This document shows positions 20,531 through 45,604 of a stretch of 64,000 nt of DNA, piece by piece; the stretch's first letter is position 1, and each line of letters opens with the position of its first letter. Source of the stretch: Sedimenticola sp. (GTDB lineage Bacteria; Pseudomonadota; Gammaproteobacteria; Chromatiales; Chromatiaceae); NCBI GenBank assembly GCA_026196475.1, contig JAPHTA010000014.1, forward strand, positions 934 through 64,933. The letters are read 5' to 3'. The position numbers and the translations under genes are program-made. The notes beneath the pieces were generated by a model. The model did no database searches and had not been told where the DNA came from. It worked only from the letters and a program-made list of their open reading frames with translations.

Positions 20531-21043
20531 CTACTCCTCCAGCACACGGATATCCGGGTTAGGATAACGTTCGATCATCCGCTTGGGCAGCTTGTGCAGT
20601 GCCGCCTGGTGCAGGGCATCCGACTCCATCAGGATCAGCACCAGCACGGTGACCATCACCGGCAACACCCCGGCACCACCGATCATCGCCATCACCGCCA
20701 CCTCTTTCAGACCGAAGTAGGTGAAACCGATCCAGCCGAGAAGCGCGATAGAACCGAGTACGGTCAACATCAGGATAAACACCCGGCTGCGCGCGGCACA
20801 GATCTGCCAGTGACACATCACGTACCAGGAATCGCGTTTTTTTGATTGGCGGGCCCGCCACAGGGTATAGCCGAGAATCAGGATCGACACCACCGGCACC
20901 AGCGCCAGCGGCTGCCAGTAGGACCGCACCAGTCCCAGCGAGGCGATAAACCAGAGGATATGGTTACCCACCAGGTTGGTGAGGAATATCTCGTGTGGCA
21001 CTTTCGCCTTTTTACTTTCCCGTTCAGAGACCTCAAACTTCAT
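20531..21043 (-). CDS. Hypothetical membrane protein
   Basis: This 170-aa ORF has about 4 TM helices and no recognised family. It is the last high-GC gene before the compositional shift. Confidence 0.45.
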   Translation of the reverse strand: MKFEVSERESKKAKVPHEIFLTNLVGNHILWFIASLGLVRSYWQPLALVPVVSILILGYTLWRARQSKKRDSWYVMCHWQICAARSRVFILMLTVLGSIALLGWIGFTYFGLKEVAVMAMIGGAGVLPVMVTVLVLILMESDALHQAALHKLPKRMIERYPNPDIRVLEE

Positions 21044-21351: not shown

Positions 21352-23283
21352 ATGAGACCCGGCACGAACAAAGCTCACGGTGGTCTGGTTACATCAGCCG
21401 TCCGAGGAACGAACGCAACTCCCATCACTGATTGCATCGTCCAATCCTGGAGACGCTGCCTGGACGAGTATGATCTTGATCCTGAACGACTTCCTGAACC
21501 CATCCTGATCGATCGCTCCGACCTGAAAGAGCGACAGGAGAAATCCTGCCGTCTGGTGGAAATCGCCCGCTCTGAGATGACCAATCTCTATCAACAGGTC
21601 ACCGGTTCAGGACATTCAATCCTGTTGACCGATATTGACGGTGTTGTTCTGAATTACGTGGGTGATCCCATGTTTACCAGTACTGCCGTCAAGACAGCGC
21701 TGCAAACCGGCGCGGTCTGGAGTGAAAAGGCCCAGGGCACTAACGGCATGGGAACCTGCCTTGTGGAAAAGCGCCCGCTGATCATTCACCAGGACGAACA
21801 CTTTTTTTCCAAGAACACACGCCTTACCTGCTCAGCCGCACCTATATTTGACCCCACCGGTCAACTGATAGCCGTACTGGATGCCTCGGGTGAATCGAGT
21901 CAGGCGCAGCAACACACCATGGTGCTGGTCAACATGTCCGCGCAACTGATTGAGAACCGGCTATTCCTCTGCAAGATGCGCGAAAACTACATTCTTCGTT
22001 TCCATAGCCGTCCGGAGTTTATCAGCACCCTGGGTGAAGGGGTTATTGCCTTCGACGAAACGGGCCAGGTTCAGGCAGCCAATCGCAGCGCGCTGTTTCA
22101 ACTGGATATGAAAGACATCATTGGTCGCCCCGTTGAAGAACTGTTTAATCTGCGCACCAACAATGCGCTTGGGAATGCACACAACCAGGCCATGGTGCCG
22201 CTACCGCTGCGGGATGCGAACCAGGGGAGACGTTTCTACGCAAGTTTCCAACCACCTAATCCTGAAAATGCCGCCAAACAGAAGCCCGGCCGGTCAACAC
22301 GGGTCTTCGTACCGGAAGCAGTGAACAATTCACCGACTCTCGAAGGACTTGAGTTTGGTGACAACCGCATGCGTCACAACATTGAACGGGCGAAAAAGCT
22401 TCTCGAACTTGATATACCCTTCATATTGCTTGGAGAGACAGGTACCGGAAAGGATGTCTTCGCCAACGCCGTGCATAAAACGAGTAGCCGGGCAAACAAA
22501 CCATTTATCGCAGTCAACTGCGCATCTTTGCCGGAGACACTGATAGAGAGCGAGCTGTTTGGATATCGGCCTGGAGCCTTTACCGGTGCGAGCAAAGAAG
22601 GATCCAGGGGGAAAATTGCACAAGCCCACGGTGGGACATTATTTCTTGACGAAATCGGTGACATGCCGCTGCATCTCCAGGCACGCCTACTACGGGTACT
22701 GGAAGAGAGGGAAGTCATACCGCTGGGTAGTGAAACACCCATCAAGGTGGATATACGCCTGATCAGCGCGACTCACCGGAATCTTCAGCTGCAGATCGAG
22801 GACGGAAGTTTCCGGGAAGACCTTTTTTACCGGCTGAACGGTATCAGCCTGCAGATGCCCCCACTCCGGGACCGGGAAGACCGACGCTCGCTGATTCAAC
22901 ACATCATGAAGCTGGAGTCAGCGGGTCAAGACAATATCGCTATTCAAGACCAGGCACTGGATGCACTGGAACAGTATGAATGGCCGGGTAATATGCGACA
23001 GCTGCGCAATATCATGCGCACCCTGATTGGCCTATGCGACAACAACCACATTGGTCTGGACGATTTGCCGGAGGAGATATTCAGTGATTGTGGTGACGAT
23101 ACCGGTGAACCAAGACAACGCGCCCGGCCCAGCAACCCCCTGGACATAGCCGAGCGTGATGCAATCATCCGTGAGTTGGAGGCCGCGCACTGGAATGTTA
23201 CGAGGGTTGCCACGAAATTGAACATCAGTCGCAACACTATGTACCGGAAAATGAAACGTTACGATATCAAGCCACCGCGCTAG
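21352..23283 (+). CDS. Sigma-54-dependent transcriptional activator, AcoR-like (N-terminal GAF-type sensor, AAA+ core, Fis-type HTH)
   Basis: It has Walker A GETGTGKD, the sigma-54 contact loop GAFTGA, an arginine-finger region and the C-terminal HTH LNISRNTMYRKMKRY. The ~300-aa N-terminal sensor region resembles AcoR-type regulators. Confidence 0.9.
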   Translation: MRPGTNKAHGGLVTSAVRGTNATPITDCIVQSWRRCLDEYDLDPERLPEPILIDRSDLKERQEKSCRLVEIARSEMTNLYQQVTGSGHSILLTDIDGVVLNYVGDPMFTSTAVKTALQTGAVWSEKAQGTNGMGTCLVEKRPLIIHQDEHFFSKNTRLTCSAAPIFDPTGQLIAVLDASGESSQAQQHTMVLVNMSAQLIENRLFLCKMRENYILRFHSRPEFISTLGEGVIAFDETGQVQAANRSALFQLDMKDIIGRPVEELFNLRTNNALGNAHNQAMVPLPLRDANQGRRFYASFQPPNPENAAKQKPGRSTRVFVPEAVNNSPTLEGLEFGDNRMRHNIERAKKLLELDIPFILLGETGTGKDVFANAVHKTSSRANKPFIAVNCASLPETLIESELFGYRPGAFTGASKEGSRGKIAQAHGGTLFLDEIGDMPLHLQARLLRVLEEREVIPLGSETPIKVDIRLISATHRNLQLQIEDGSFREDLFYRLNGISLQMPPLRDREDRRSLIQHIMKLESAGQDNIAIQDQALDALEQYEWPGNMRQLRNIMRTLIGLCDNNHIGLDDLPEEIFSDCGDDTGEPRQRARPSNPLDIAERDAIIRELEAAHWNVTRVATKLNISRNTMYRKMKRYDIKPPR

Positions 23284-23309
23284 ACTCTCCACCACAACAA
23301 CACCCCGGT

Positions 23310-23325
23310 TGGCCCGGGCCTTGCA
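23310..23325 (+). promoter_or_regulatory. Sigma-54 (-24/-12) promoter motif TGGCCCGGGCCTTGCA
   Basis: The GG-N10-GC spacing is exact, with flanks matching the TGGCAC-N5-TTGCA consensus. It lies in the 70-nt gap between the activator gene and the PTPS-like gene. Confidence 0.6.
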
Positions 23326-23353
23326 ATAGAAGGCTATAGAGTCAACACGCAGG

Positions 23354-23866
23354 ATGCCGAGAATGAATCGTTTTGCCGTGCGCGTTCACCCGGGTGAACT
23401 CCATTTTAACGCAGCGCACTTTATCACCTTCAATCGGAGCTGTGAAAACTTACATGGACATAACTTCCATCTGAGCGTGGAGGCTTGGGGAGAAAAGACC
23501 CCGGATGCCTTCGTCATCGATTTTGTTCTGTTGAACAAGCTTGCCGCCAACATCTGCGAAGAGCTCCATGACGGTGTACTGGTACCAACGGAAAGCGAAG
23601 AGATTACACTCTCCGAACTGGAAAATGACATGCTTGAGATTCGCAGCTATGACAAACGTTTTATCCTGAGTCGAGCCAGCTGTATTCTTTTACCGATAAC
23701 AAATACCACTGCAGAGATGCTCGCGTCCCATATCAGCAACCGTCTTATCGAAAGACTGCGGGCAGATCGGGGAATTGGCAATCTGCAGACACTGAAAGTC
23801 TCTGTAGAAGAAGCGGATCACCAGTGGGGAATCTGTCTGCGGGAGATCACCCATGACCAATACTGA
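23354..23866 (+). CDS. 6-pyruvoyl-tetrahydropterin synthase (QueD/PTPS) family protein of H4MPT clusters
   Basis: The PTPS metal/catalytic motif AAHFITFNRSCENLHGHNFHL is present. The ATG at 23363 has better AGGA spacing and may be the true start. Confidence 0.8.
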   Translation: MPRMNRFAVRVHPGELHFNAAHFITFNRSCENLHGHNFHLSVEAWGEKTPDAFVIDFVLLNKLAANICEELHDGVLVPTESEEITLSELENDMLEIRSYDKRFILSRASCILLPITNTTAEMLASHISNRLIERLRADRGIGNLQTLKVSVEEADHQWGICLREITHDQY

Positions 23867-24404
23867 TCGGGTCGCCTGGGCGATTACTGGCTCCGGACAC
23901 TACCTGAAAGAGTGTATACAGCTGGCCGAACAGCTTCCGGCAGTCGATCTTTTTCTCAGTAAAGCAGCCACCGAGGTGCTCCAGGCCTATGGCATTCCCG
24001 TCAAGCATCTGAAACAGCATTTTCGTATTTTTCATGACAATACCGCCAGTGCGACACCCGTGGGCCTTTTCTATGAGGGAGTCTACAAGCAGTTGATTGT
24101 CGCACCCGCTACATCCAATAGCGTGGCGAAGATGGTTTACGGTATCTCAGACTCACTGGTCACCAACGTTTATGCACAGGCAGGAAAATGCCGGATCCCC
24201 AGTATTGTATTTGCCTGCGACGTCTCACCAACCATGGAGACCGAAGCACCCGGCGGTACCGTCACCGTGTACCCTCGCCGTATTGACCTTGAAAACACGA
24301 AACGCCTGATGGATTTCGAATACACCCGGGTGGTAACCGATCTGCCATCGCTTGAGGCTGCTCTCGACATACCTGCACCATGTCTGAACATCTCCTCTTT
24401 CTGA
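23853..24404 (+). CDS. afpA: AfpA-type flavoprotein (probable dihydromethanopterin reductase)
   Basis: The flavoprotein-fold N-terminus is VAWAITGSGHYLKEC. It overlaps both neighbours and occupies the conserved position in H4MPT biosynthesis clusters. Confidence 0.7.
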   Translation: MTNTDRVAWAITGSGHYLKECIQLAEQLPAVDLFLSKAATEVLQAYGIPVKHLKQHFRIFHDNTASATPVGLFYEGVYKQLIVAPATSNSVAKMVYGISDSLVTNVYAQAGKCRIPSIVFACDVSPTMETEAPGGTVTVYPRRIDLENTKRLMDFEYTRVVTDLPSLEAALDIPAPCLNISSF

Positions 24405-25789
24405 CCGGATCACTGGCCGAAAACAGCCTTCGCCAGGTGCTGCACGAAATGGCGCCGGCGCCGGTCTCCTGGGAAGTGCAACCGCTCAAGGTCAAGGTGG
24501 CGGCGTTGTTGACCGGCGAGATGATAAAACGCCAGTTAGCGGATACCGGAAGCGCCAGCCGCGTGGTGATTCCCGGTCGCTGCCGCGGTAACCTGGTAGG
24601 ATTGAGCGAGCACTATGGCACACCGTTTCAGCGGGGGCCGGATGAACTTCGGGACCTTCCGGAATGGCTGGGGCGGTCAGGACAACCGCCCGATCTGGGT
24701 CAGCACAGTGTGTTGATCTTTGCCGAGATCGTGGATGCCCCCAACCTGACTCCGGCCGCCATCCTGCTCCAGGCCGAACGATTTCGTCAGGATGGTGCTG
24801 ATATCATTGATCTGGGTTGCCTGCCCGATCAGCCATTCACGCACCTGGAAGAGAGCGTCCGGCTTCTCAAGTCAGAGGGGTTCAAGGTCAGTATCGATTC
24901 TCACCGGGAGGAAGAGCTGCTTGCCGGGGGCAAGTCAGGTGCCGATTATCTACTCAGCCTGACTGAAGAGACGTTGTGGATTGCCGATGAAGTAGAGGCC
25001 ACACCCATTATAATTCCTCATACGGCAGGCGACCTGGAGAGCTTGCAGCGCGCATGGGAAAGGCTCCGCTCCAGAGGACGCAGCGGCTTCATAGATCCCA
25101 TTCTTGACCCTATCCATTTCGGTTTTACAGATTCCATTGTCCGCTACCACGAAGTGCGAAAACGTCTCCCGGACGCTCCCATGATGATGGGCGTTGGAAA
25201 TCTGACCGAACTCACAGAGGCGGATACCAGTGGCATCAACGCCTTGCTGTTTGGAATAATATCGGAGTTGCAGGTCGGTGCCGTGCTGACCACCTCGGTC
25301 AGCCCTCATTGCAGGTCCGCGGTGCGGGAGGCTGATCTATCAAGGCGCATCATGTTTCGCGCCAGAACCGACAGCAGCTTGCCGAAACACCTGCATGGCG
25401 GACTCAGTAGCCGCCATGAACGCCACCCTTTTCCTTATGATTCGACGGATATCAGAAAGGCGGCAAACCAGGTTAAAGACCGCAACTATCGTATACAGGT
25501 CAACCAGGAAGGCATCCATGTTTACAATCGCGATGCCCTGCACCAGGCGGAAGACCCATTTGAACTGTTTCCTCATCTTGACGTGGAAGAAGATGGCAGT
25601 CATGCCTTTTATCTCGGCGTAGAGCTGGCTCGCGCCCAGATCGCTCTGCAACTGGGTAAACGCTATACCCAGGACCAGTTACTCGACTGGGGTATCGCCA
25701 CTCGGCCAAAGATAGAGAATCTGCTTGAATACGCCAAACCCGCAAGTACCAAAAAAGGTCGAAAACCTGAATCCAGGAGGAGACGCTGA
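24380..25789 (+). CDS. Dihydropteroate synthase-like pterin-binding protein (H4MPT biosynthesis)
   Basis: The central region is a DHPS-like TIM barrel (DGADIIDLGC, MMMGVGNLTELTEADTSGINA), with an additional N-terminal domain as in methylotroph H4MPT clusters. Confidence 0.7.
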   Translation: MSEHLLFLTGSLAENSLRQVLHEMAPAPVSWEVQPLKVKVAALLTGEMIKRQLADTGSASRVVIPGRCRGNLVGLSEHYGTPFQRGPDELRDLPEWLGRSGQPPDLGQHSVLIFAEIVDAPNLTPAAILLQAERFRQDGADIIDLGCLPDQPFTHLEESVRLLKSEGFKVSIDSHREEELLAGGKSGADYLLSLTEETLWIADEVEATPIIIPHTAGDLESLQRAWERLRSRGRSGFIDPILDPIHFGFTDSIVRYHEVRKRLPDAPMMMGVGNLTELTEADTSGINALLFGIISELQVGAVLTTSVSPHCRSAVREADLSRRIMFRARTDSSLPKHLHGGLSSRHERHPFPYDSTDIRKAANQVKDRNYRIQVNQEGIHVYNRDALHQAEDPFELFPHLDVEEDGSHAFYLGVELARAQIALQLGKRYTQDQLLDWGIATRPKIENLLEYAKPASTKKGRKPESRRRR

Positions 25790-25796
25790 ATGAGGT

Positions 25797-25812
25797 TGGC
25801 CCGGGTTTTGCT
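25797..25812 (+). promoter_or_regulatory. Sigma-54 (-24/-12) promoter motif TGGCCCGGGTTTTGCT
   Basis: It matches the motif at 23310 at 13 of 16 positions and has exact GG-N10-GC spacing. It lies in the 37-nt gap before fhcB. Confidence 0.55.
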
Positions 25813-25826
25813 CCCTCTATTCCACT

Positions 25827-27020
25827 ATGAGTAGACAAAGCAAGCTGAACACTCCGGCATTTATTAGCTGCCCTTTCTGTGCCATGGTCTGTGACGATCT
25901 GTCACTGCCAGCACACAGCGAACCCACGCGCTCACCAGAAATATCCTGCGAGAAAGCCCGCTCCGGTTTTTCCGATGCATTACGGGCCACGCGCAAAACC
26001 CCACTTATCCACGGCAAAGAGGCTACCTGGGAACAGGCGCTGAAACAGGCTGCTAGAATGCTGGCAAATGCCAGCCACCCGCTGATTGATGGTTTGATTG
26101 GCGACTTGCTGGATTGCAAGGCGGCTGCCAGATTGGCGGAAAACTTTGGCGGCACGATCGATCATCTGCATGGTAACGCCATTGCCCGAAACCTGCGCAT
26201 CTACCAGCAAGGTGGTTGGCTAATCAGCAGCATGGGCGAGGTCCGCAATCGCGCTGACCTGGTTATTCTGGTAGGTGAAGAACTGGAAGCAACACACCCG
26301 CGATTGCAGGAGAAACTGTTCGAATCCCCGGAAAGGTTACACGCCAGTGCCCCACCAGCCATCCATCAGCTTGGTCACGACTGCCTCGACCTTCTGTCGG
26401 TAGTGCGCGCCCGCCTTGCCGACAAGCCGGTACAATCCGATATCACTGGAAGTGATGAATTGATCACGCAACTGTCCGCATCTGTCTACCCCGTTTTTGT
26501 CATCGGCTGCCTGCCGGAACAGAGTGCGGAGTTGATTATTCGAACCTGCATCGGGCTGGTGCGTGATATCAATGAGACCCGGCGTGCCGCCCTACTCATT
26601 CTGGGATCGGGTGAGGGCGACACGACCGCACAACTGGGTACCACCTGGAATAACGGTTTCGGCATTCGCACCTCGCATGCCAGGGGTTTCCCGGAACAGG
26701 ATCTGGAGATGCATGCAGGAAGCCGTCTGTTGGAATCCGGGGAGGCCGATCTCCTGGTCTGGATCAGTAGTTTAAGCACGTCACCACCTCCTCAAGTCCG
26801 CCAAAGCACGCTGGTTTTCGGACACCCGGCGATGGTATTCACGCACGGGCCACCGGACATATTTCTGCCGGTTGGCGTGCCCGGTATCCAGCGTGCCGGT
26901 TATCTTCATCGGGCTGATGGGCTTCGAATGGTGCCACTTCACAAGCTTGTCGACAGCACTCTGCCCGGCAGCATCACACTTTGTGAGCACCTGATCTCAC
27001 AGGAACCCAGAACATGTTGA
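25827..27020 (+). CDS. fhcB: Formyltransferase/hydrolase complex subunit B (formylmethanofuran dehydrogenase subunit B homologue)
   Basis: It has the N-terminal CPFCAMVCDDL motif and a FwdB-like fold without a recognisable Mo-binding Cys/Sec context. It is followed by fhcA with an 8-nt overlap. Confidence 0.85.
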   Translation: MSRQSKLNTPAFISCPFCAMVCDDLSLPAHSEPTRSPEISCEKARSGFSDALRATRKTPLIHGKEATWEQALKQAARMLANASHPLIDGLIGDLLDCKAAARLAENFGGTIDHLHGNAIARNLRIYQQGGWLISSMGEVRNRADLVILVGEELEATHPRLQEKLFESPERLHASAPPAIHQLGHDCLDLLSVVRARLADKPVQSDITGSDELITQLSASVYPVFVIGCLPEQSAELIIRTCIGLVRDINETRRAALLILGSGEGDTTAQLGTTWNNGFGIRTSHARGFPEQDLEMHAGSRLLESGEADLLVWISSLSTSPPPQVRQSTLVFGHPAMVFTHGPPDIFLPVGVPGIQRAGYLHRADGLRMVPLHKLVDSTLPGSITLCEHLISQEPRTC

Positions 27021-28648
27021 CACGATTGAAAGGGGCCAGTATCTACGATCCGGTCAATAATCTGAACGGTGTGTGTGGAGATATATGGATCAGGGACGAA
27101 TATATCTGCGAGGCGCCAGACAGCCCGGAAAAGGCGGATGTAACGGTGGACCTGGAAGGCAGAATCCTGATGGCCGGGGCGATTGATATTCACAGTCACA
27201 TTGCCGGCGGGAATGTAAACAATGCCCGTCTGTTGCTCCCTGAGCAGCATATGGCTGAGCGCGGGGCATTTTCCACACTTCCCTTCTCAGCCGCAAAGTG
27301 GTCAGCCCATGATACCGGGTACCGGTATGCGGAGATGGGCTTTACGACGGTGGTTGAACCTGCTGTCTTACCTATCAATGCCGCCCAGGCGCATGCGGAA
27401 TTTGCCGATATACCGATCATCGACACGGCCGGCCTGGCGATTGTCGGCAACGATGACTTTTTGCTTCGCATGTTGCGCCAAAGGGAGGAACAATCCCGAA
27501 TCAATGACTATCTCGCCTGGACACTTCATGCCACACAATGCCTCGGAGTCAAGGTGATCAATGCAGGTGGTGCCACCGCTTTCAAATTCAACCAGAGGCA
27601 ACTTCTTCTGGATGATGAAGTACCCATGTATGGTATGACATCACGCCAGATTCTTAACGCCGTACAGCGCGCTGTTGTTCAACTGGGTATCCGGCACCCG
27701 GTACATGTTCACTGCAATAATCTGGGCATCCCGGGCAACGTAAATACGGCTCTTGACACCATCGAGGCGGCTGATGGTCTGCCCATGCACCTCGCTCATG
27801 TGCAGTTCTATGGTTATGGAAACGACGGAGCGTCTGGCTTTTCATCCGGCGCCAGGGCACTCGCCGATGCCATTATGAAAAACTCCAATATCACGGTTGA
27901 TATTGGGCAAGTGCTATTTGGTCAAACCGTTACCATTTCCGGCGATGTGATGCGTCAGTTCGACGCCCGCCATATCGCGAGCCCCAATAAATGGGTCGTT
28001 TGGGAAGGCGAAGACGGTGGCGGTGGCATTGTACCGTTCCGATATCGACCCAAAAACTTTGTCAATGCCCTGCAGTGGGCGATCGGCCTGGAGCTTTTTC
28101 TGCTGATAGATGATCCCTGGCGGGTCTTTTTTACCACCGACCATCCCAACGGCGCTCCGTTCACCGCGTATCCTGAACTATTCAGATTGCTGATGGACCG
28201 GGATTACAGAAACCAGTGGCTGGATCGAATCAACGCCAAATCGGCAGATATCAGCCTGCTTCCTCACCTGGATCGGGAATATGACTTGAACGAGATCGCG
28301 ATTATGACCCGGGCCGCACCCGCCAGGTTGCTGGGTCTCGATGACCGGGGTCATCTTGCCGCCGGTGCCATTGCCGACATAGCCGTCTATCGGCCGCAAG
28401 CTGACAAGGCCGCCATGTTTGGCAAGGCTGAGTTGGTATTCAAAAACGGCGCCCTGGTCGTTGAAGAGGGGAAGGTCATTCGCTCCGTCCAGGGGAAAAC
28501 CCATGCCGTCTCACCTGAATTCGACAGGCGTATTGAAACCACCATTGGCGACTATTTTGATCGCTATCACCTGATGAAAATGGATCACTACAAACTGGAC
28601 CCGCAGCATCTTCTCGAGACTCTTGGTAGTGAGCTTGTATTCCATTGA
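27014..28648 (+). CDS. fhcA: Formyltransferase/hydrolase complex subunit A (amidohydrolase, FwdA homologue)
   Basis: It has the amidohydrolase signature AGAIDIHSHIAGG and is 544 aa long, typical of FhcA/FwdA. Confidence 0.88.
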   Translation: MLTRLKGASIYDPVNNLNGVCGDIWIRDEYICEAPDSPEKADVTVDLEGRILMAGAIDIHSHIAGGNVNNARLLLPEQHMAERGAFSTLPFSAAKWSAHDTGYRYAEMGFTTVVEPAVLPINAAQAHAEFADIPIIDTAGLAIVGNDDFLLRMLRQREEQSRINDYLAWTLHATQCLGVKVINAGGATAFKFNQRQLLLDDEVPMYGMTSRQILNAVQRAVVQLGIRHPVHVHCNNLGIPGNVNTALDTIEAADGLPMHLAHVQFYGYGNDGASGFSSGARALADAIMKNSNITVDIGQVLFGQTVTISGDVMRQFDARHIASPNKWVVWEGEDGGGGIVPFRYRPKNFVNALQWAIGLELFLLIDDPWRVFFTTDHPNGAPFTAYPELFRLLMDRDYRNQWLDRINAKSADISLLPHLDREYDLNEIAIMTRAAPARLLGLDDRGHLAAGAIADIAVYRPQADKAAMFGKAELVFKNGALVVEEGKVIRSVQGKTHAVSPEFDRRIETTIGDYFDRYHLMKMDHYKLDPQHLLETLGSELVFH

Positions 28649-28655
28649 GGTCTTC

Positions 28656-29228
28656 ATGAGCGAACGGATACATGAAGTTATCGTAGTTACCTGCAATCCT
28701 GATGGATCACCGCATATTGCACCCATGGGCATCCGGCAGCGAGGCAGTCAATTACTGATCGCTCCCTTTCGTCCCTCGAAAACGCTGGACAACCTGCTAC
28801 GGGAGGGGAACGCCAGTATCAACACCACCGATGATGTTCGTGTTTACGCCGGCTGCCTGACCCAACACTTTCAGTGGCCCCTTGTGAAGTGCGAGAGAAT
28901 CGAGGGACTTCGCCTGCGAGATGCGCTGAGCCATGAGGAGATCAGCGTTTATCGGATAAAAGATGATGTCGAGCGACCTGAGCTTGTCTGCGAGCGGATT
29001 CATCATGCCAATCATCGTCCATTCAACGGTTACAACCGTGCACAGGCAGCCGTAATTGAGCTGGCCATACTGGTCAGTCGCTTTCATCTACTCACGCCTG
29101 AAAAACTGGAGAACGAAATCACGTACCTGAAAATCGCCATTGACAAGACAGCAGGTCGTAAAGAGCATGAGGCCTGGGACTGGCTGATGAAGAAGGTTCA
29201 CTCCTATAGGAAGAGGAATTGTGCATGA
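28656..29228 (+). CDS. DUF447 family protein (H4MPT-cluster associated, flavin-reductase-like fold)
   Basis: The N-terminus MSERIHEVIVVTCNPDGSPHIAPMGI is typical of DUF447. The start is at the ATG after GAGG, and an ATGA overlap leads into mfnB. Confidence 0.7.
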   Translation: MSERIHEVIVVTCNPDGSPHIAPMGIRQRGSQLLIAPFRPSKTLDNLLREGNASINTTDDVRVYAGCLTQHFQWPLVKCERIEGLRLRDALSHEEISVYRIKDDVERPELVCERIHHANHRPFNGYNRAQAAVIELAILVSRFHLLTPEKLENEITYLKIAIDKTAGRKEHEAWDWLMKKVHSYRKRNCA

Positions 29229-29941
29229 CCGGTCTGTTGGCCAGCATCTGTTCGACCGAAGAAGCGGCGATAGCTTTGAATGCGTACGCTGACATTATCG
29301 ATTGTAAAGATCCCTCGCGAGGCGCACTGGGCGCACTCGACCCCGGCAAGATCAGGGAAATCGTCAACGCCGTAGATGGGAAACGGCCAGTCAGCGCCAC
29401 CCTGGGGGACCTTCCCCCCGACCCCGAGCGGATAAGAATCGCCATCCGGAAAACAGCTCACTGTGGCGTCGACTACATCAAACTCGGGCTGTTCGATGAA
29501 GCCACCGCAGCCGGCTGCATTGAGGCACTGGAAGAGGTATGCGGACAACATAAACTGATCGCCGTCTGCTTTGCCGACCGATTCGACCCCTCTTCACTCG
29601 TCCCGCTACTCGCCCTGTACGGTTTTTACGGGGTGATGATTGATACTGCGGAAAAGCTATCGGGCCGCCTGACCGATCTCTGGACCCTGGATCGCCTCTC
29701 CCACTTTGTCGACCAGGCTCGACGATATGGACTGGTCTGTGGAGTGGCCGGTCGCCTGACGATTGACGACATTCCCTCTCTGTTGTCGATCAAGGCTGAT
29801 TACCTGGGGTTTCGCAGTGCACTCTGTATCTCTGATCGGACGAGTCGAATTGAACATGAGGCGGTAGTGAAGGCAAGAAATGCCCTGTCGCGTCGCCAGG
29901 ACGCGGCTGCAGTCAGCACACCTCTTCCGTCTGTGCGCTAA
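29225..29941 (+). CDS. mfnB: (5-formylfuran-3-yl)methyl phosphate synthase (methanofuran biosynthesis, DUF556)
   Basis: It is MfnB-like: LLASICSTEEAAIALNAYADIIDCKDPSRGALGAL, including the Schiff-base lysine region. The ATG at 29225 follows GAGGA. Confidence 0.8.
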   Translation: MTGLLASICSTEEAAIALNAYADIIDCKDPSRGALGALDPGKIREIVNAVDGKRPVSATLGDLPPDPERIRIAIRKTAHCGVDYIKLGLFDEATAAGCIEALEEVCGQHKLIAVCFADRFDPSSLVPLLALYGFYGVMIDTAEKLSGRLTDLWTLDRLSHFVDQARRYGLVCGVAGRLTIDDIPSLLSIKADYLGFRSALCISDRTSRIEHEAVVKARNALSRRQDAAAVSTPLPSVR

Positions 29942-30303
29942 TGACAATCTGCCCGCAGATCCGAAGACAGCGCGCCATAATCGAGGGGCTGCATGGTTTG
30001 GAGACGATCACCGATCAGATTGTCAGGCAGGTACTGCAGGCGATGACAAACACACTCGGTATGAAACCGATTGCGGAAACGGTGATCTTCTCTCCGGATC
30101 ATGTCAGTGAATTGCATCATGGCATAGGCGGTTTTCAGGCATGGGCGGAATCCGGTTGTTCACTCTACACCTGGCGTGATTACAGGCTTTTCACTCTGGA
30201 CCTTTACTCGTGCAAACCCTTCGCAGTATCCGATTGTATCCAGAAGCTTGAGGTTATCTTGCTCCCGGAGGCTATTGAGTGGCGTGACATTCGTTCCAGG
30301 TAG
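29941..30303 (+). CDS. Class 1 S-adenosylmethionine decarboxylase-like (SpeH/SpeD fold) pyruvoyl-enzyme homologue, substrate unknown
   Basis: This 120-aa ORF aligns by eye to SpeH. AESGCSLYTWRDYRLFTLDLYSCKP matches [25 protein letters not shown], so the E-S cleavage pair and catalytic Cys are kept. A TAATG overlap joins it to the mfnB stop. Confidence 0.6.
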   Translation: MTICPQIRRQRAIIEGLHGLETITDQIVRQVLQAMTNTLGMKPIAETVIFSPDHVSELHHGIGGFQAWAESGCSLYTWRDYRLFTLDLYSCKPFAVSDCIQKLEVILLPEAIEWRDIRSR

Positions 30304-30369
30304 AAAAAAATGGGCTACGGAGTAGTAACCCTGCGGCCCCAAGCGGAGGTCAGGTAGTCGACGTGTTTT

Positions 30370-34321: not shown

Positions 34322-34330
34322 ACAAACTCC

Positions 34331-35014
34331 TTGAATATCATCCCTGTCATAGATCTTTTACGAGGCTGCGTGGTTCACGCCGTTCAAGGACGTCGTGCCG
34401 CATACCGCGCGATCAACTCACCACTATGTCATCATGGGGAAGTCATTCCGTTGGTGACCCGGCTTTGCGATGACTTTGGCATACAACAGCTCTACGTAGC
34501 TGATCTGGACGCCATACAGGGGTATGGCGACAACGTTTCCACCCTGCAACTTGTTGCTCATACCTTTCCCCGCCTCGATCTTTGGATTGACGCGGGATTC
34601 TCCTCGCCTGCATCCCTTCAGGTACTGAAGGAAATGCTCGATTTCCGCCCGGTTATCGGTTCAGAAAGCTGGCGATATCTTCGCCGTTTTCCTTTCGGGG
34701 AGGCCATTCTTTCCATTGATTCCACAGACGAAATCCTGCTCGATCCGTCTGGCATCACTCGTGATAGTGACCGGCGTCCGAATACACTCATTCTGATGAA
34801 TCTCTCGCGTGTCGGGTCGCTACAGGGTCCAGATATGAAAGGGCTTGAGTATTGGCGGTCTGCTGCGCCCGGCACCAATCTGTATATGGCTGGCGGAGTG
34901 CGAAACCGACTTGATATCGAAAAACTGCAGTCAGCAGGTGCCACGGGTGTGTTACTGGCAAGTGCGCTGCATAATGGCGCCTTGAATGCCGGGGATTTCA
35001 GGTGTTTCAGCTGA
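34331..35014 (+). CDS. HisA/HisF-family (beta/alpha)8 barrel protein of H4MPT clusters
   Basis: NIIPVIDLLRGCVVHAVQG is the HisA/HisF N-terminal signature, and GGVRN lies near the C-terminus. I infer the start at the TTG at 34331, because the longer track ORF overlaps the divergent mfnD. Confidence 0.6.
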   Translation: MNIIPVIDLLRGCVVHAVQGRRAAYRAINSPLCHHGEVIPLVTRLCDDFGIQQLYVADLDAIQGYGDNVSTLQLVAHTFPRLDLWIDAGFSSPASLQVLKEMLDFRPVIGSESWRYLRRFPFGEAILSIDSTDEILLDPSGITRDSDRRPNTLILMNLSRVGSLQGPDMKGLEYWRSAAPGTNLYMAGGVRNRLDIEKLQSAGATGVLLASALHNGALNAGDFRCFS

Positions 35015-42681: not shown

Positions 42682-42698
42682 TTGCAAACCCCGTGCCT
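42682..42698 (-). promoter_or_regulatory. Sigma-54 (-24/-12) promoter motif AGGCACGGGGTTTGCAA (minus strand)
   Basis: It matches GGCAC-N5-TTGCA with exact GG-N10-GC spacing. The -12 C lies 14 nt upstream of the mptG ATG. Confidence 0.45.
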
Positions 42699-42864
42699 GT
42701 TTTCACGAGCCAATAAAACGGCGAGGTTTGTAGGGTCTTACATTCATGTGTGCGTCTACCATGTGTCAATGTGTCACGACCCTACGGCGCACCCATGACA
42801 ATCCAGTACCTGTTTATCGGCTGTAGCCGGTCAGACGGGTGGCCTCTGCCACCATCAAGAAGAC

Positions 42865-42880
42865 CGGCATAGCTTTTGCC
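42865..42880 (+). promoter_or_regulatory. Sigma-54 (-24/-12) promoter motif CGGCATAGCTTTTGCC
   Basis: It has exact GG-N10-GC spacing with GGCAT and TTGC flanks, ~40 nt upstream of the fhcD start. Confidence 0.5.
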
Positions 42881-45004: not shown

Positions 45005-45020
45005 TGGCACTAAAGCTGCA
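45005..45020 (+). promoter_or_regulatory. Sigma-54 (-24/-12) promoter motif TGGCACTAAAGCTGCA
   Basis: This is the best consensus match in the window (TGGCAC-N5-CTGCA, GG-N10-GC). It lies 27 nt before the SCO start codon, with a GGGAGG ribosome-binding site in between. Confidence 0.65.
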
Positions 45021-45046: not shown

Positions 45047-45604
45047 ATGCGTAAACTACTTAAATACCTGGCCTTAACGGCACTGGGATTGATCAACGTC
45101 GGCAATGCATCCGGAGCGGGTGGCAATTTCAGCCTGATCGCAGATAACGGCACACCCTACTCGCTCTCGGATTCCCGGGGAAATATTGTTGTACTTTCGT
45201 TTGGGTACACCTTTTGTCCGGATGTGTGTCCGACAGGACTGGCGACCATCAGCAGCGCCTTGAACAGCATCGGGGAAGCTGCACAACAAATCGATGCCCT
45301 GTTTATATCGGTGGACCCGGACCGTGACACCCCGGAAACCCTGGCAAAATACACCCGCTATTTCCATCCCAGACTGACCGGGCTAACCGGCCATGCTGAA
45401 TCGATTGCTGATGTTGCCAGACGCTATTACGCGCGTTTTGAATTCGTTGGGAAAGGCGAAACACCCAATTACACCATTGATCACACGGCAAGCTTTTACA
45501 TTATTGACAGGAATGGACAGTTGATAAACGTACTTCCTCATAGCGTTCCTCCAGACTCACTGGCAGAAAGTCTTCTTGTTGCTGTCAGGCAGCCAGTCAA
45601 ATAG
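45047..45604 (+). CDS. SCO1/SenC family copper chaperone (secreted or anchored)
   Basis: It has a signal-like N-terminus, the FGYTFCPDVCP CxxxC motif and the DHT histidine. Confidence 0.85.
   Translation: MRKLLKYLALTALGLINVGNASGAGGNFSLIADNGTPYSLSDSRGNIVVLSFGYTFCPDVCPTGLATISSALNSIGEAAQQIDALFISVDPDRDTPETLAKYTRYFHPRLTGLTGHAESIADVARRYYARFEFVGKGETPNYTIDHTASFYIIDRNGQLINVLPHSVPPDSLAESLLVAVRQPVK

Follow-up and report, generated by a model that had tools for sequence, protein, structure and literature searches.

What controls tetrahydromethanopterin (H4MPT)-linked formaldehyde oxidation, and with it the costly synthesis of two archaeal-type cofactors, is poorly understood. The question is raised directly by a 64,000-nucleotide (nt) stretch of DNA from Sedimenticola sp. 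(GenBank assembly GCA_026196475.1, contig JAPHTA010000014.1, positions 934 to 64,933 of the forward strand; hereafter, the window), in which a gene for a putative sigma-54 activator is followed by a -24/-12 promoter and a string of genes for H4MPT synthesis, methanofuran synthesis and the Fhc complex. The source genome is a draft of 399 contigs that is 91% complete, and the window lies on the contig we designate C135. Our analysis indicates that the activator is probably a cluster-specific enhancer-binding protein of the AcoR/MimR/DhaR type, which would respond to a one-carbon (C1)-related signal and switch the formaldehyde-to-CO2 module from two promoters, P1 and P2, and probably from three others, P3 to P5.

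The activator gene (21352 to 23283, plus strand; TAG stop codon at 23281 to 23283) encodes a protein of 643 amino acids, which was annotated with Pfam, NCBIfam and the motifs in its translation. The sensor (residues 1 to 335; nt 21352 to 22356), with a GAF domain at residues 68 to 204 and a weak PAS_4 match at residues 227 to 280, is followed by the AAA+ sigma-54 interaction domain (residues 337 to 500; nt 22360 to 22851; PF00158 Sigma54_activat, E = 8e-68), a match to AAA_lid_14, and a Fis-type helix-turn-helix (HTH) domain (residues 599 to 637; nt 23146 to 23262; PF02954 HTH_8, E = 2e-12). The translation contains Walker A (GETGTGKD) and Walker B (TLFLDEIGD) motifs, the sensor-II region WPGNMRQLRN and an intact GAFTGA loop, located inside GYRPGAFTGASKEG. 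With an AAA+ domain, both Walker motifs, the GAFTGA loop and a C-terminal Fis-type HTH, the protein is a bacterial enhancer-binding protein. No other Sigma54_activat match was found on the contig, and no DNA-binding domain was detected in the approximately 50 other open reading frames (ORFs) of the window that were scanned.

The best full-length curated model for the activator is the NCBIfam equivalog DhaR (NF008485), which aligns end to end; the protein is not a DhaR ortholog, however, because it scores 328 bits against a cut-off of 551. Compared with solved structures, the N-terminal 335 residues match only DhaR(N) (4LRX, E = 1.9e-7, residues 24 to 277), and the top Foldseek matches for the AlphaFold model of this part (mean predicted local distance difference test [pLDDT] score 68.6, with the PAS part above 90) are again DhaR(N) structures (4LRX, 4LRZ and 4LRY, E about 1e-12). 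The MimR_N domain (PF26965) plus GAF is recorded on homologs with 52 to 90% identity to the activator, which their sources name "sigma-54-dependent Fis family" or, in the case of JGI, "acetoin/glycerol metabolism" regulators. Judged by its sequence, the activator is a member of the AcoR/MimR/DhaR-type subfamily (COG3284), with a sensor of the MimR_N plus GAF (plus PAS) kind rather than a receiver or V4R/XylR domain. A preliminary description of this DNA, made from the letters alone, had presented the protein as a GAF/AcoR-type sensor joined to an AAA+ core with GAFTGA and as the only regulator in the block. The domains, motifs and contig scan bear out both statements; the AcoR-type label names the right family, although among solved structures the sensor is nearest, both in sequence and in fold, to the GAF-PAS module of DhaR.

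The first promoter element, P1 (TGGCCCGGGCCTTGCA; 23310 to 23325, plus strand), begins at the 27th nucleotide past the activator stop codon and has its GG at 23311 to 23312 and its GC at 23323 to 23324, that is, with exact N10 spacing, as the preliminary description had stated; transcription is predicted to start near 23336. The genes that follow on the plus strand encode a PTPS-like protein (23363 to 23866; PF01242), an AfpA-like flavoprotein related to dihydromethanopterin reductase (23853 to 24404; PF02441, TIGR02699 and TIGR02700, all under cut-off) and a DHPS-like protein consisting of DUF6513 and a pterin-binding tail (24380 to 25789; PF20123, TIGR00284). The listed ORF of the PTPS-like gene starts at 23354, but the true start is probably the ATG at 23363 (MNRFAVRV...; Shine-Dalgarno AGGA at 23351 to 23354) because orthologs begin at the corresponding position, which would give P1 a predicted leader of approximately 27 nt. 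Neither a sigma-70-like promoter (in a simple, insensitive scan) nor a terminator was found between the activator and the PTPS-like gene. The second element, P2 (TGGCCCGGGTTTTGCT; 25797 to 25812, plus strand; predicted +1 near 25823), is located 8 nt past the DHPS-like stop codon and 14 nt ahead of the fhcB ATG and is identical to P1 at 13 of 16 nt. It precedes the genes for the formylmethanofuran dehydrogenase subunit B homolog (fhcB, 25827 to 27020; TIGR03129, under cut-off), fhcA (27014 to 28648; TIGR03121, 671 bits, over cut-off), a DUF447 protein (28623 to 29228; PF04289, PF20766), an mfnB-like 4-HFC-P synthase (29219 to 29941; 4HFCP_synth, PF04476, E = 7e-67) and an AdoMetDC-fold protein (29941 to 30303; PF02675), the last gene of the plus-strand string, which ends at a terminator-like hairpin between convergent operons (30312 to 30331, minus strand). 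The gene order given in the preliminary description thus stands, with the AdoMetDC-fold gene at its end, but the notion of one operon under one promoter has to be given up because of P2. No -24/-12 element that could mediate autoregulation was found upstream of the activator in the window, and among 21 other loci only one (L032) has such an element.

Similar elements occur elsewhere in the island. P3 (AGGCACGGGGTTTGCA; 42683 to 42698, minus strand) lies 12 nt ahead of the mptG ATG (42670), the divergently oriented and weaker-scoring P4 (CGGCATAGCTTTTGCC; 42865 to 42880, plus strand) precedes fhcD (42916) and fhcC, both identified with NCBIfam, and P5 (TGGCACTAAAGCTGCA; 45005 to 45020, plus strand) precedes an SCO-like gene (ATG at 45047) and genes for NAD-linked formate dehydrogenase. 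The motif TGGC-N7-TTGCW was found six times in the window against 1.35 expected, a count reached in none of 100 shuffles. When all 7.0 million positions of the genome were scored against a weighted consensus, 84 sites reached the threshold of at least 19, five of them within the 64-kb window, and four of the five best window sites (P1, P2, P3 and P5) occupy short intergenic gaps, each immediately ahead of C1 genes and facing them. P2 and P3 end only 14 and 12 nt ahead of the fhcB and mptG starts, a spacing shared by four Sedimenticola genomes, and neither gap contains a Shine-Dalgarno sequence. Both promoters are predicted to give near-leaderless mRNAs; in other genera, the distance from P2 to fhcB is longer (L006, L009 and L010).

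To place the locus in a broader context, we scanned for homologs of the activator at one genome per species, which yielded 48 loci. The order of the activator, the PTPS-like, afpA-like and DHPS-like genes, and then fhcBA and/or DUF447-mfnB is kept down to approximately 50% identity, in Sedimenticola, Thiodiazotropha, Chromatiales, Thiohalocapsa, Thiohalobacter, Thiogranum, cultured Thioalkalivibrio and some metagenome-assembled genomes of Burkholderiales, with L035, L040 and L042 as betaproteobacterial examples. The same locus, with an activator that is 92% identical, is found in S. selenatireducens DSM 17993. P1 is kept in 12 loci (L004, L005, L006, L009, L010, L014, L018, L019, L020, L025, L033 and G004) that span Sedimenticola, Thiodiazotropha, Chromatiales, Thiohalocapsa and Thiohalobacter, where it stands 19 to approximately 210 nt past the activator stop codon in a spacer that is otherwise unalignable. 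P2 precedes fhcB in all eight other fhcB-bearing loci (L004, L005, L006, L007, L009, L010, G004 and L063, the last from a cultured Thioalkalivibrio), and in L007 a paralogous activator stands directly before fhcB with an element of its own, TGGCCCGCCAATTGCT. Both P3 and P4 recur in G003, G004 and G008, which are also Sedimenticola genomes, and in L065, L026 and L022 fds genes close to the activator are headed by P5-like elements. P1 and P2, being near-consensus, enriched over shuffled sequence and conserved across genera, have the marks of -24/-12 promoters at putative target genes.

The association between the activator and the C1 genes extends beyond the promoters. In a maximum-likelihood tree of 38 homologs, 28 adjoin C1 cofactor or fhc genes, and these are spread over all major branches. 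Within Sedimenticola, an activator ortholog with at least 85% identity is present in exactly those genomes that carry full-length fhcD (G000, G003, G004 and G008) and is absent from the five genomes without fhcD; in G007, which is 78% complete, fhcD is only partial. From this co-occurrence and linkage, we conclude that the activator and the island are inherited as one unit. The regulatory link between the activator and the C1 genes proposed in the preliminary description is thus supported by sequence comparison, through the complete activator, the cross-genus -24/-12 elements and the joint inheritance. An ordinary type of regulator appears to be attached to a regulon without a described dedicated regulator, a reading that comparative genomics supports well but does not prove.

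The way in which such a switch would operate can be outlined from the known workings of the protein family. The GAF-PAS module would keep the AAA+ core inactive until a C1-related signal, most likely formaldehyde or a close derivative, is present; the activator would then use its C-terminal Fis-type HTH to bind enhancer DNA, where it would assemble as a hexamer, and its GAFTGA loop would contact sigma-54 RNA polymerase, with ATP being used to open the -24/-12 promoters. P1 would serve the H4MPT-synthesis genes (PTPS-like, afpA-like and DHPS-like), whereas P2 would drive fhcB, fhcA, the DUF447 gene, mfnB and the AdoMetDC-like gene for the Fhc complex and methanofuran synthesis. With P3 (mptG...mch...fae), P4 (fhcDC) and P5 (formate dehydrogenase) as probable further targets, the whole formaldehyde-to-CO2 module would be switched on together. 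The domains, the promoter elements with their conservation and the gene linkage are observed; the promoters assigned to the activator, its binding sites and its signal are inferred.

Several observations weigh against this interpretation. Approximately half of the more distant loci (55 to 65% identity) have no -24/-12 element after the activator, a class-level relative (G016) has fhcD without the activator, and close paralogs in L008 and L011 do not adjoin H4MPT genes. Furthermore, rpoN, on whose presence the preliminary description had made the link depend, was not found in the assembly itself with TIGR02395 or PF04552. It is present in eight of nine Sedimenticola congeners, and the genome encodes 15 full enhancer-binding proteins with sigma-54 interaction domains. 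In addition, one flank of rpoN in a congener matches the last 550 nt of contig C280, and the other flank is found at two contig ends, in the first 520 nt of C1 and at the end of C264. These three results argue that rpoN probably lies in an assembly break falling exactly at its locus, and the matches to contig ends are our reason for rejecting the failed search as evidence of absence.

Also on the negative side, k-mer, inverted-repeat and dyad searches recovered no enhancer motif common to the regions upstream of P1 to P5 or shared across genera. Exact inverted repeats upstream of P1 and P2, k-mers common to 12 P1 and 7 P2 upstream regions, and dyads of 4 to 6 nt with spacers of 0 to 16 nt in 11 noncoding promoter-upstream stretches from several genera all failed to rise above shuffled controls. 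Because no enhancer was found, the assignment of P1 to P5 to the activator rests on linkage, co-occurrence and the lack of another regulator in the island. The best candidate for an enhancer or operator, detected through a four-genome alignment and dyad analysis, is a central block of approximately 55 nt in the mptG-fhcD intergenic region (42750 to 42804; GTGCGTCT..CATGTGTCA.TGTGTCACG......ACGGCGCACCCATGACAATC), which is near-identical across four Sedimenticola genomes, sits halfway between the diverging promoters of mptG and fhcD, and contains three direct TGTCA, one inverted TGACA and the dyad GGTGCG-N33-CGCACC. The words of this block do not recur near P1, P2 or P5 or upstream of the activator. 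A weak candidate for an embedded enhancer site is a 25-nt run within the HTH-coding part of the activator gene (23204 to 23228, plus strand), approximately 85 to 105 nt upstream of P1, which is identical in the alignment of four Sedimenticola genomes, third codon positions included; in G004, however, a 200-nt insertion parts this run from P1.

Two further points on this side concern the sensor. Its most conserved stretch, residues 128 to 159 (window 21733 to 21828; GTNGMGTC...IHQDEHFF, including invariant Cys and His residues), received the lowest confidence in the AlphaFold model, with pLDDT below 50, and the naming of a ligand, be it formaldehyde, formate or a C1 aldehyde, is pure analogy. 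The sensor as a whole is extremely conserved within the clade, its invariant residues including C36, GTNGxGTC at 129 to 136, H146, H150, C160 and H188, and the conserved, low-confidence loop would fit a ligand or partner site without identifying either. As for the analogy, AcoR senses acetoin and acetaldehyde, and acetone is the signal for both MimR and AcxR; DhaR follows the dihydroxyacetone state by way of DhaK and DhaL. EatR, for its part, senses acetaldehyde (PMC5821096). If the activator switches the module as we propose, formaldehyde would be the signal that best fits a regulon spanning cofactor synthesis to formate oxidation, at somewhat less than an even chance.

The broadest form of the proposal, in which a sigma-54 activator sensing formaldehyde or another C1 carbonyl is the master switch of the entire H4MPT/methanofuran module, is one that we advance tentatively. 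Its scope would include cofactor synthesis, Fae/Mch/MtdB, the Fhc complex and formate dehydrogenase, and its hosts would be sulfur-oxidizing Gammaproteobacteria (Sedimenticola, Thiodiazotropha symbionts, Chromatiaceae and Thioalkalivibrio), with a related form in Burkholderiales.

Among the alternatives, the one that survives best retains the activator as the switch but assigns it a different signal, such as formate, methanol, a methylated compound of sulfur or nitrogen that lies upstream of formaldehyde, an intermediate of H4MPT or methanofuran, or the availability of molybdate or tungstate. The predicted regulon takes in formate dehydrogenase through P5, a Thiodiazotropha paralog adjoins an ABC transporter of the molybdate/tungstate type, and no methanol dehydrogenase dependent on pyrroloquinoline quinone (PQQ) was found in the whole assembly with TIGR03075 (the best match being a 403-residue PQQ-repeat lipoprotein), which bears on the source of formaldehyde. 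However, it can be argued that a substrate-level signal best suits a regulon whose genes range from the synthesis of cofactors to the oxidation of formate, and the precedents within the family are, by analogy, small carbonyl compounds. We consider this alternative possible, but a minority case.

Less probable, although still to be taken seriously, is that the activator drives the island in response to no small molecule at all and that a partner protein of the pathway, either an enzyme or a cofactor-loaded protein, binds its GAF-PAS module, as in DhaR. The only solved relative of the sensor, DhaR(N), was crystallized with DhaK and DhaL, and residues 128 to 159, with GTNGxGTC, H146, H150 and, just beside them, C160, could form a surface that becomes ordered only in a complex, consistent with the low pLDDT. 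On the other hand, no conserved candidate for a partner gene adjoins the activator across loci, and characterized members of the family answer to added small carbonyls, as EatR does to acetaldehyde (PMC5821096).

It is improbable that the promoters, while real, are served by another of the approximately 14 remaining enhancer-binding proteins, responsive to nitrogen, energy or stress, with the adjacent activator merely traveling with the island and acting on some other target. Such a scenario draws on the number of these proteins encoded in the genome, on the lack of an enhancer site that could be tied to the activator, and on the many distant loci in which no -24/-12 element is recognizable after it. 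It is difficult to reconcile with the adjacency of the activator to C1 genes across the whole family tree, with the strict co-occurrence of activator and island within the genus, with the L007 paralog directly before the fhcB promoter and with the status of the activator as the sole gene of its kind on the contig. Finally, although the insensitivity of the simple sigma-70 scan leaves room for unrecognized sigma-70 promoters or for read-through from the activator gene, the idea that the motifs are chance matches is highly implausible given their excess in the window, the placement of four of the five best sites directly upstream of C1 genes in the correct orientation and their conservation across genera inside diverged spacers.

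The proposed circuit can be compared with several characterized systems. EatR of Pseudomonas aeruginosa (PA4021) is likewise a sigma-54 activator encoded in its cluster beside a -24/-12 promoter and acts with RpoN; what it senses is a toxic aldehyde intermediate, acetaldehyde, and not the substrate for growth (PMC5821096). EatR serves ethanolamine catabolism, whereas the Sedimenticola activator would serve the H4MPT and methanofuran genes. DhaR of Escherichia coli (PDB 4LRX, 4LRZ) has the same GAF-PAS module and overall architecture, although the identity in the fold alignment is only approximately 17%. DhaR acts together with sigma-70, and the proteins DhaK and DhaL are its switch; the Sedimenticola activator, by contrast, has an intact GAFTGA loop and is accompanied by -24/-12 promoters. 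AcoR, AcxR and MimR belong to the same domain family (COG3284; MimR_N plus GAF), with regulons comprising acetoin dehydrogenase, acetone carboxylase and propane/acetone monooxygenase, and none of these three is known to control C1 cofactor or Fhc genes.

Sigma-54 control is not foreign to C1 oxidation as such. MmoR is the sigma-54 activator of soluble methane monooxygenase. In both this system and that of Mfla_0343, an activator adjacent to the genes for a C1-oxidation step exerts sigma-54 control, as is proposed for Sedimenticola, but on the first oxidation steps (of methane and methanol), not on the H4MPT formaldehyde-oxidation module. In model methylotrophs, the H4MPT-pathway genes look constitutive or sigma-70 driven. 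Mfla_0343 is the sigma-54 regulator adjoining xoxF in Methylobacillus flagellatus (PMC9988556). In Methylosinus sporium, the C1 genes that have been mapped have sigma-70-type promoters, and RpoN sites are located at nitrogen-metabolism genes (PMC12403871). The C1 cluster of Thiodiazotropha symbionts has been described (PMC6712303), and no sigma-54 regulator was found in the passages of that account that were examined. Full-text literature searches for a connection of sigma-54 or RpoN with H4MPT, fae or fhc genes returned no paper, in agreement with the earlier remark that sigma-54 control of this pathway is not an established paradigm.

A dedicated sigma-54 activator encoded within its cluster, together with conserved promoters that number at least two and probably five, constitutes a concrete, testable circuit, and it occurs in cultured strains, namely, S. 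selenatireducens DSM 17993 and isolates of Thioalkalivibrio. This arrangement suggests that facultative sulfur oxidizers and lucinid-clam symbionts hold C1 oxidation as a tightly gated accessory module. Should the activator prove to be a master switch that senses formaldehyde or another C1 carbonyl, H4MPT formaldehyde oxidation would have its first known dedicated transcription factor, and formaldehyde sensors would gain a class with no relation to FrmR, HxlR, NmlR and EfgA. If the sensor binds formaldehyde, it would also provide a ready-made biosensor part with low background, of interest for synthetic methylotrophy.

Examination of the homologous loci revealed additional features in the vicinity of the activator. 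In the Thiodiazotropha locus L012 (8100 to 11715), an activator paralog with 69% identity is followed by an AdoMetDC-fold gene like that at 29941 to 30303 of the window and then by the molybdate/tungstate-type ABC transporter (SBP_bac_11, BPD_transp_1, ABC_tran-TOBE). Just upstream of the activator in L063 (3248 to 7524; Thioalkalivibrio) and L008 (588 to 3815; a Thiodiazotropha paralog locus) are an acyl-CoA-dehydrogenase-like gene and a gene for a multi-PAS histidine kinase, accompanied in Thioalkalivibrio by a GerE-type response regulator; the kinase genes may provide a second sensory input. In the window itself, a 170-residue ORF (20531 to 21043, minus strand) between a DsbD-like gene and the activator has no Pfam or NCBIfam match and is kept at 79 to 88% identity in S. 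selenatireducens and G004.

A narrower form of the promoter motif, TGGCCC-N5-TTGCW, occurs seven times genome-wide, with a clear promoter position only for the two island sites. We considered it as a family-specific promoter flavor and rejected it; one of the other sites precedes a gene for a PQQ-repeat lipoprotein, not a methanol dehydrogenase. In two Chromatiaceae-like loci, L026 (4040 to 4300, minus strand) and L022 (5000 to 5300, minus strand), a conserved leader of approximately 200 nt stands behind a sigma-54-like element, TGGCAAGCATYTTGCG, and ends in a GC-rich hairpin and a T-run ahead of an fdsG-like gene. A search against Rfam families gave no match in the window, L022 or L026, and this leader is therefore a possible unclassified leader or attenuator. 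Finally, a plus-strand ORF at 34330 to 35014 with a HisA/HisF-like N terminus (IIPVIDLLRGCVVHAVQG...), located between the mfnD operon and a PTPS-fusion gene, divides the minus-strand C1 genes of the island into two transcription units.

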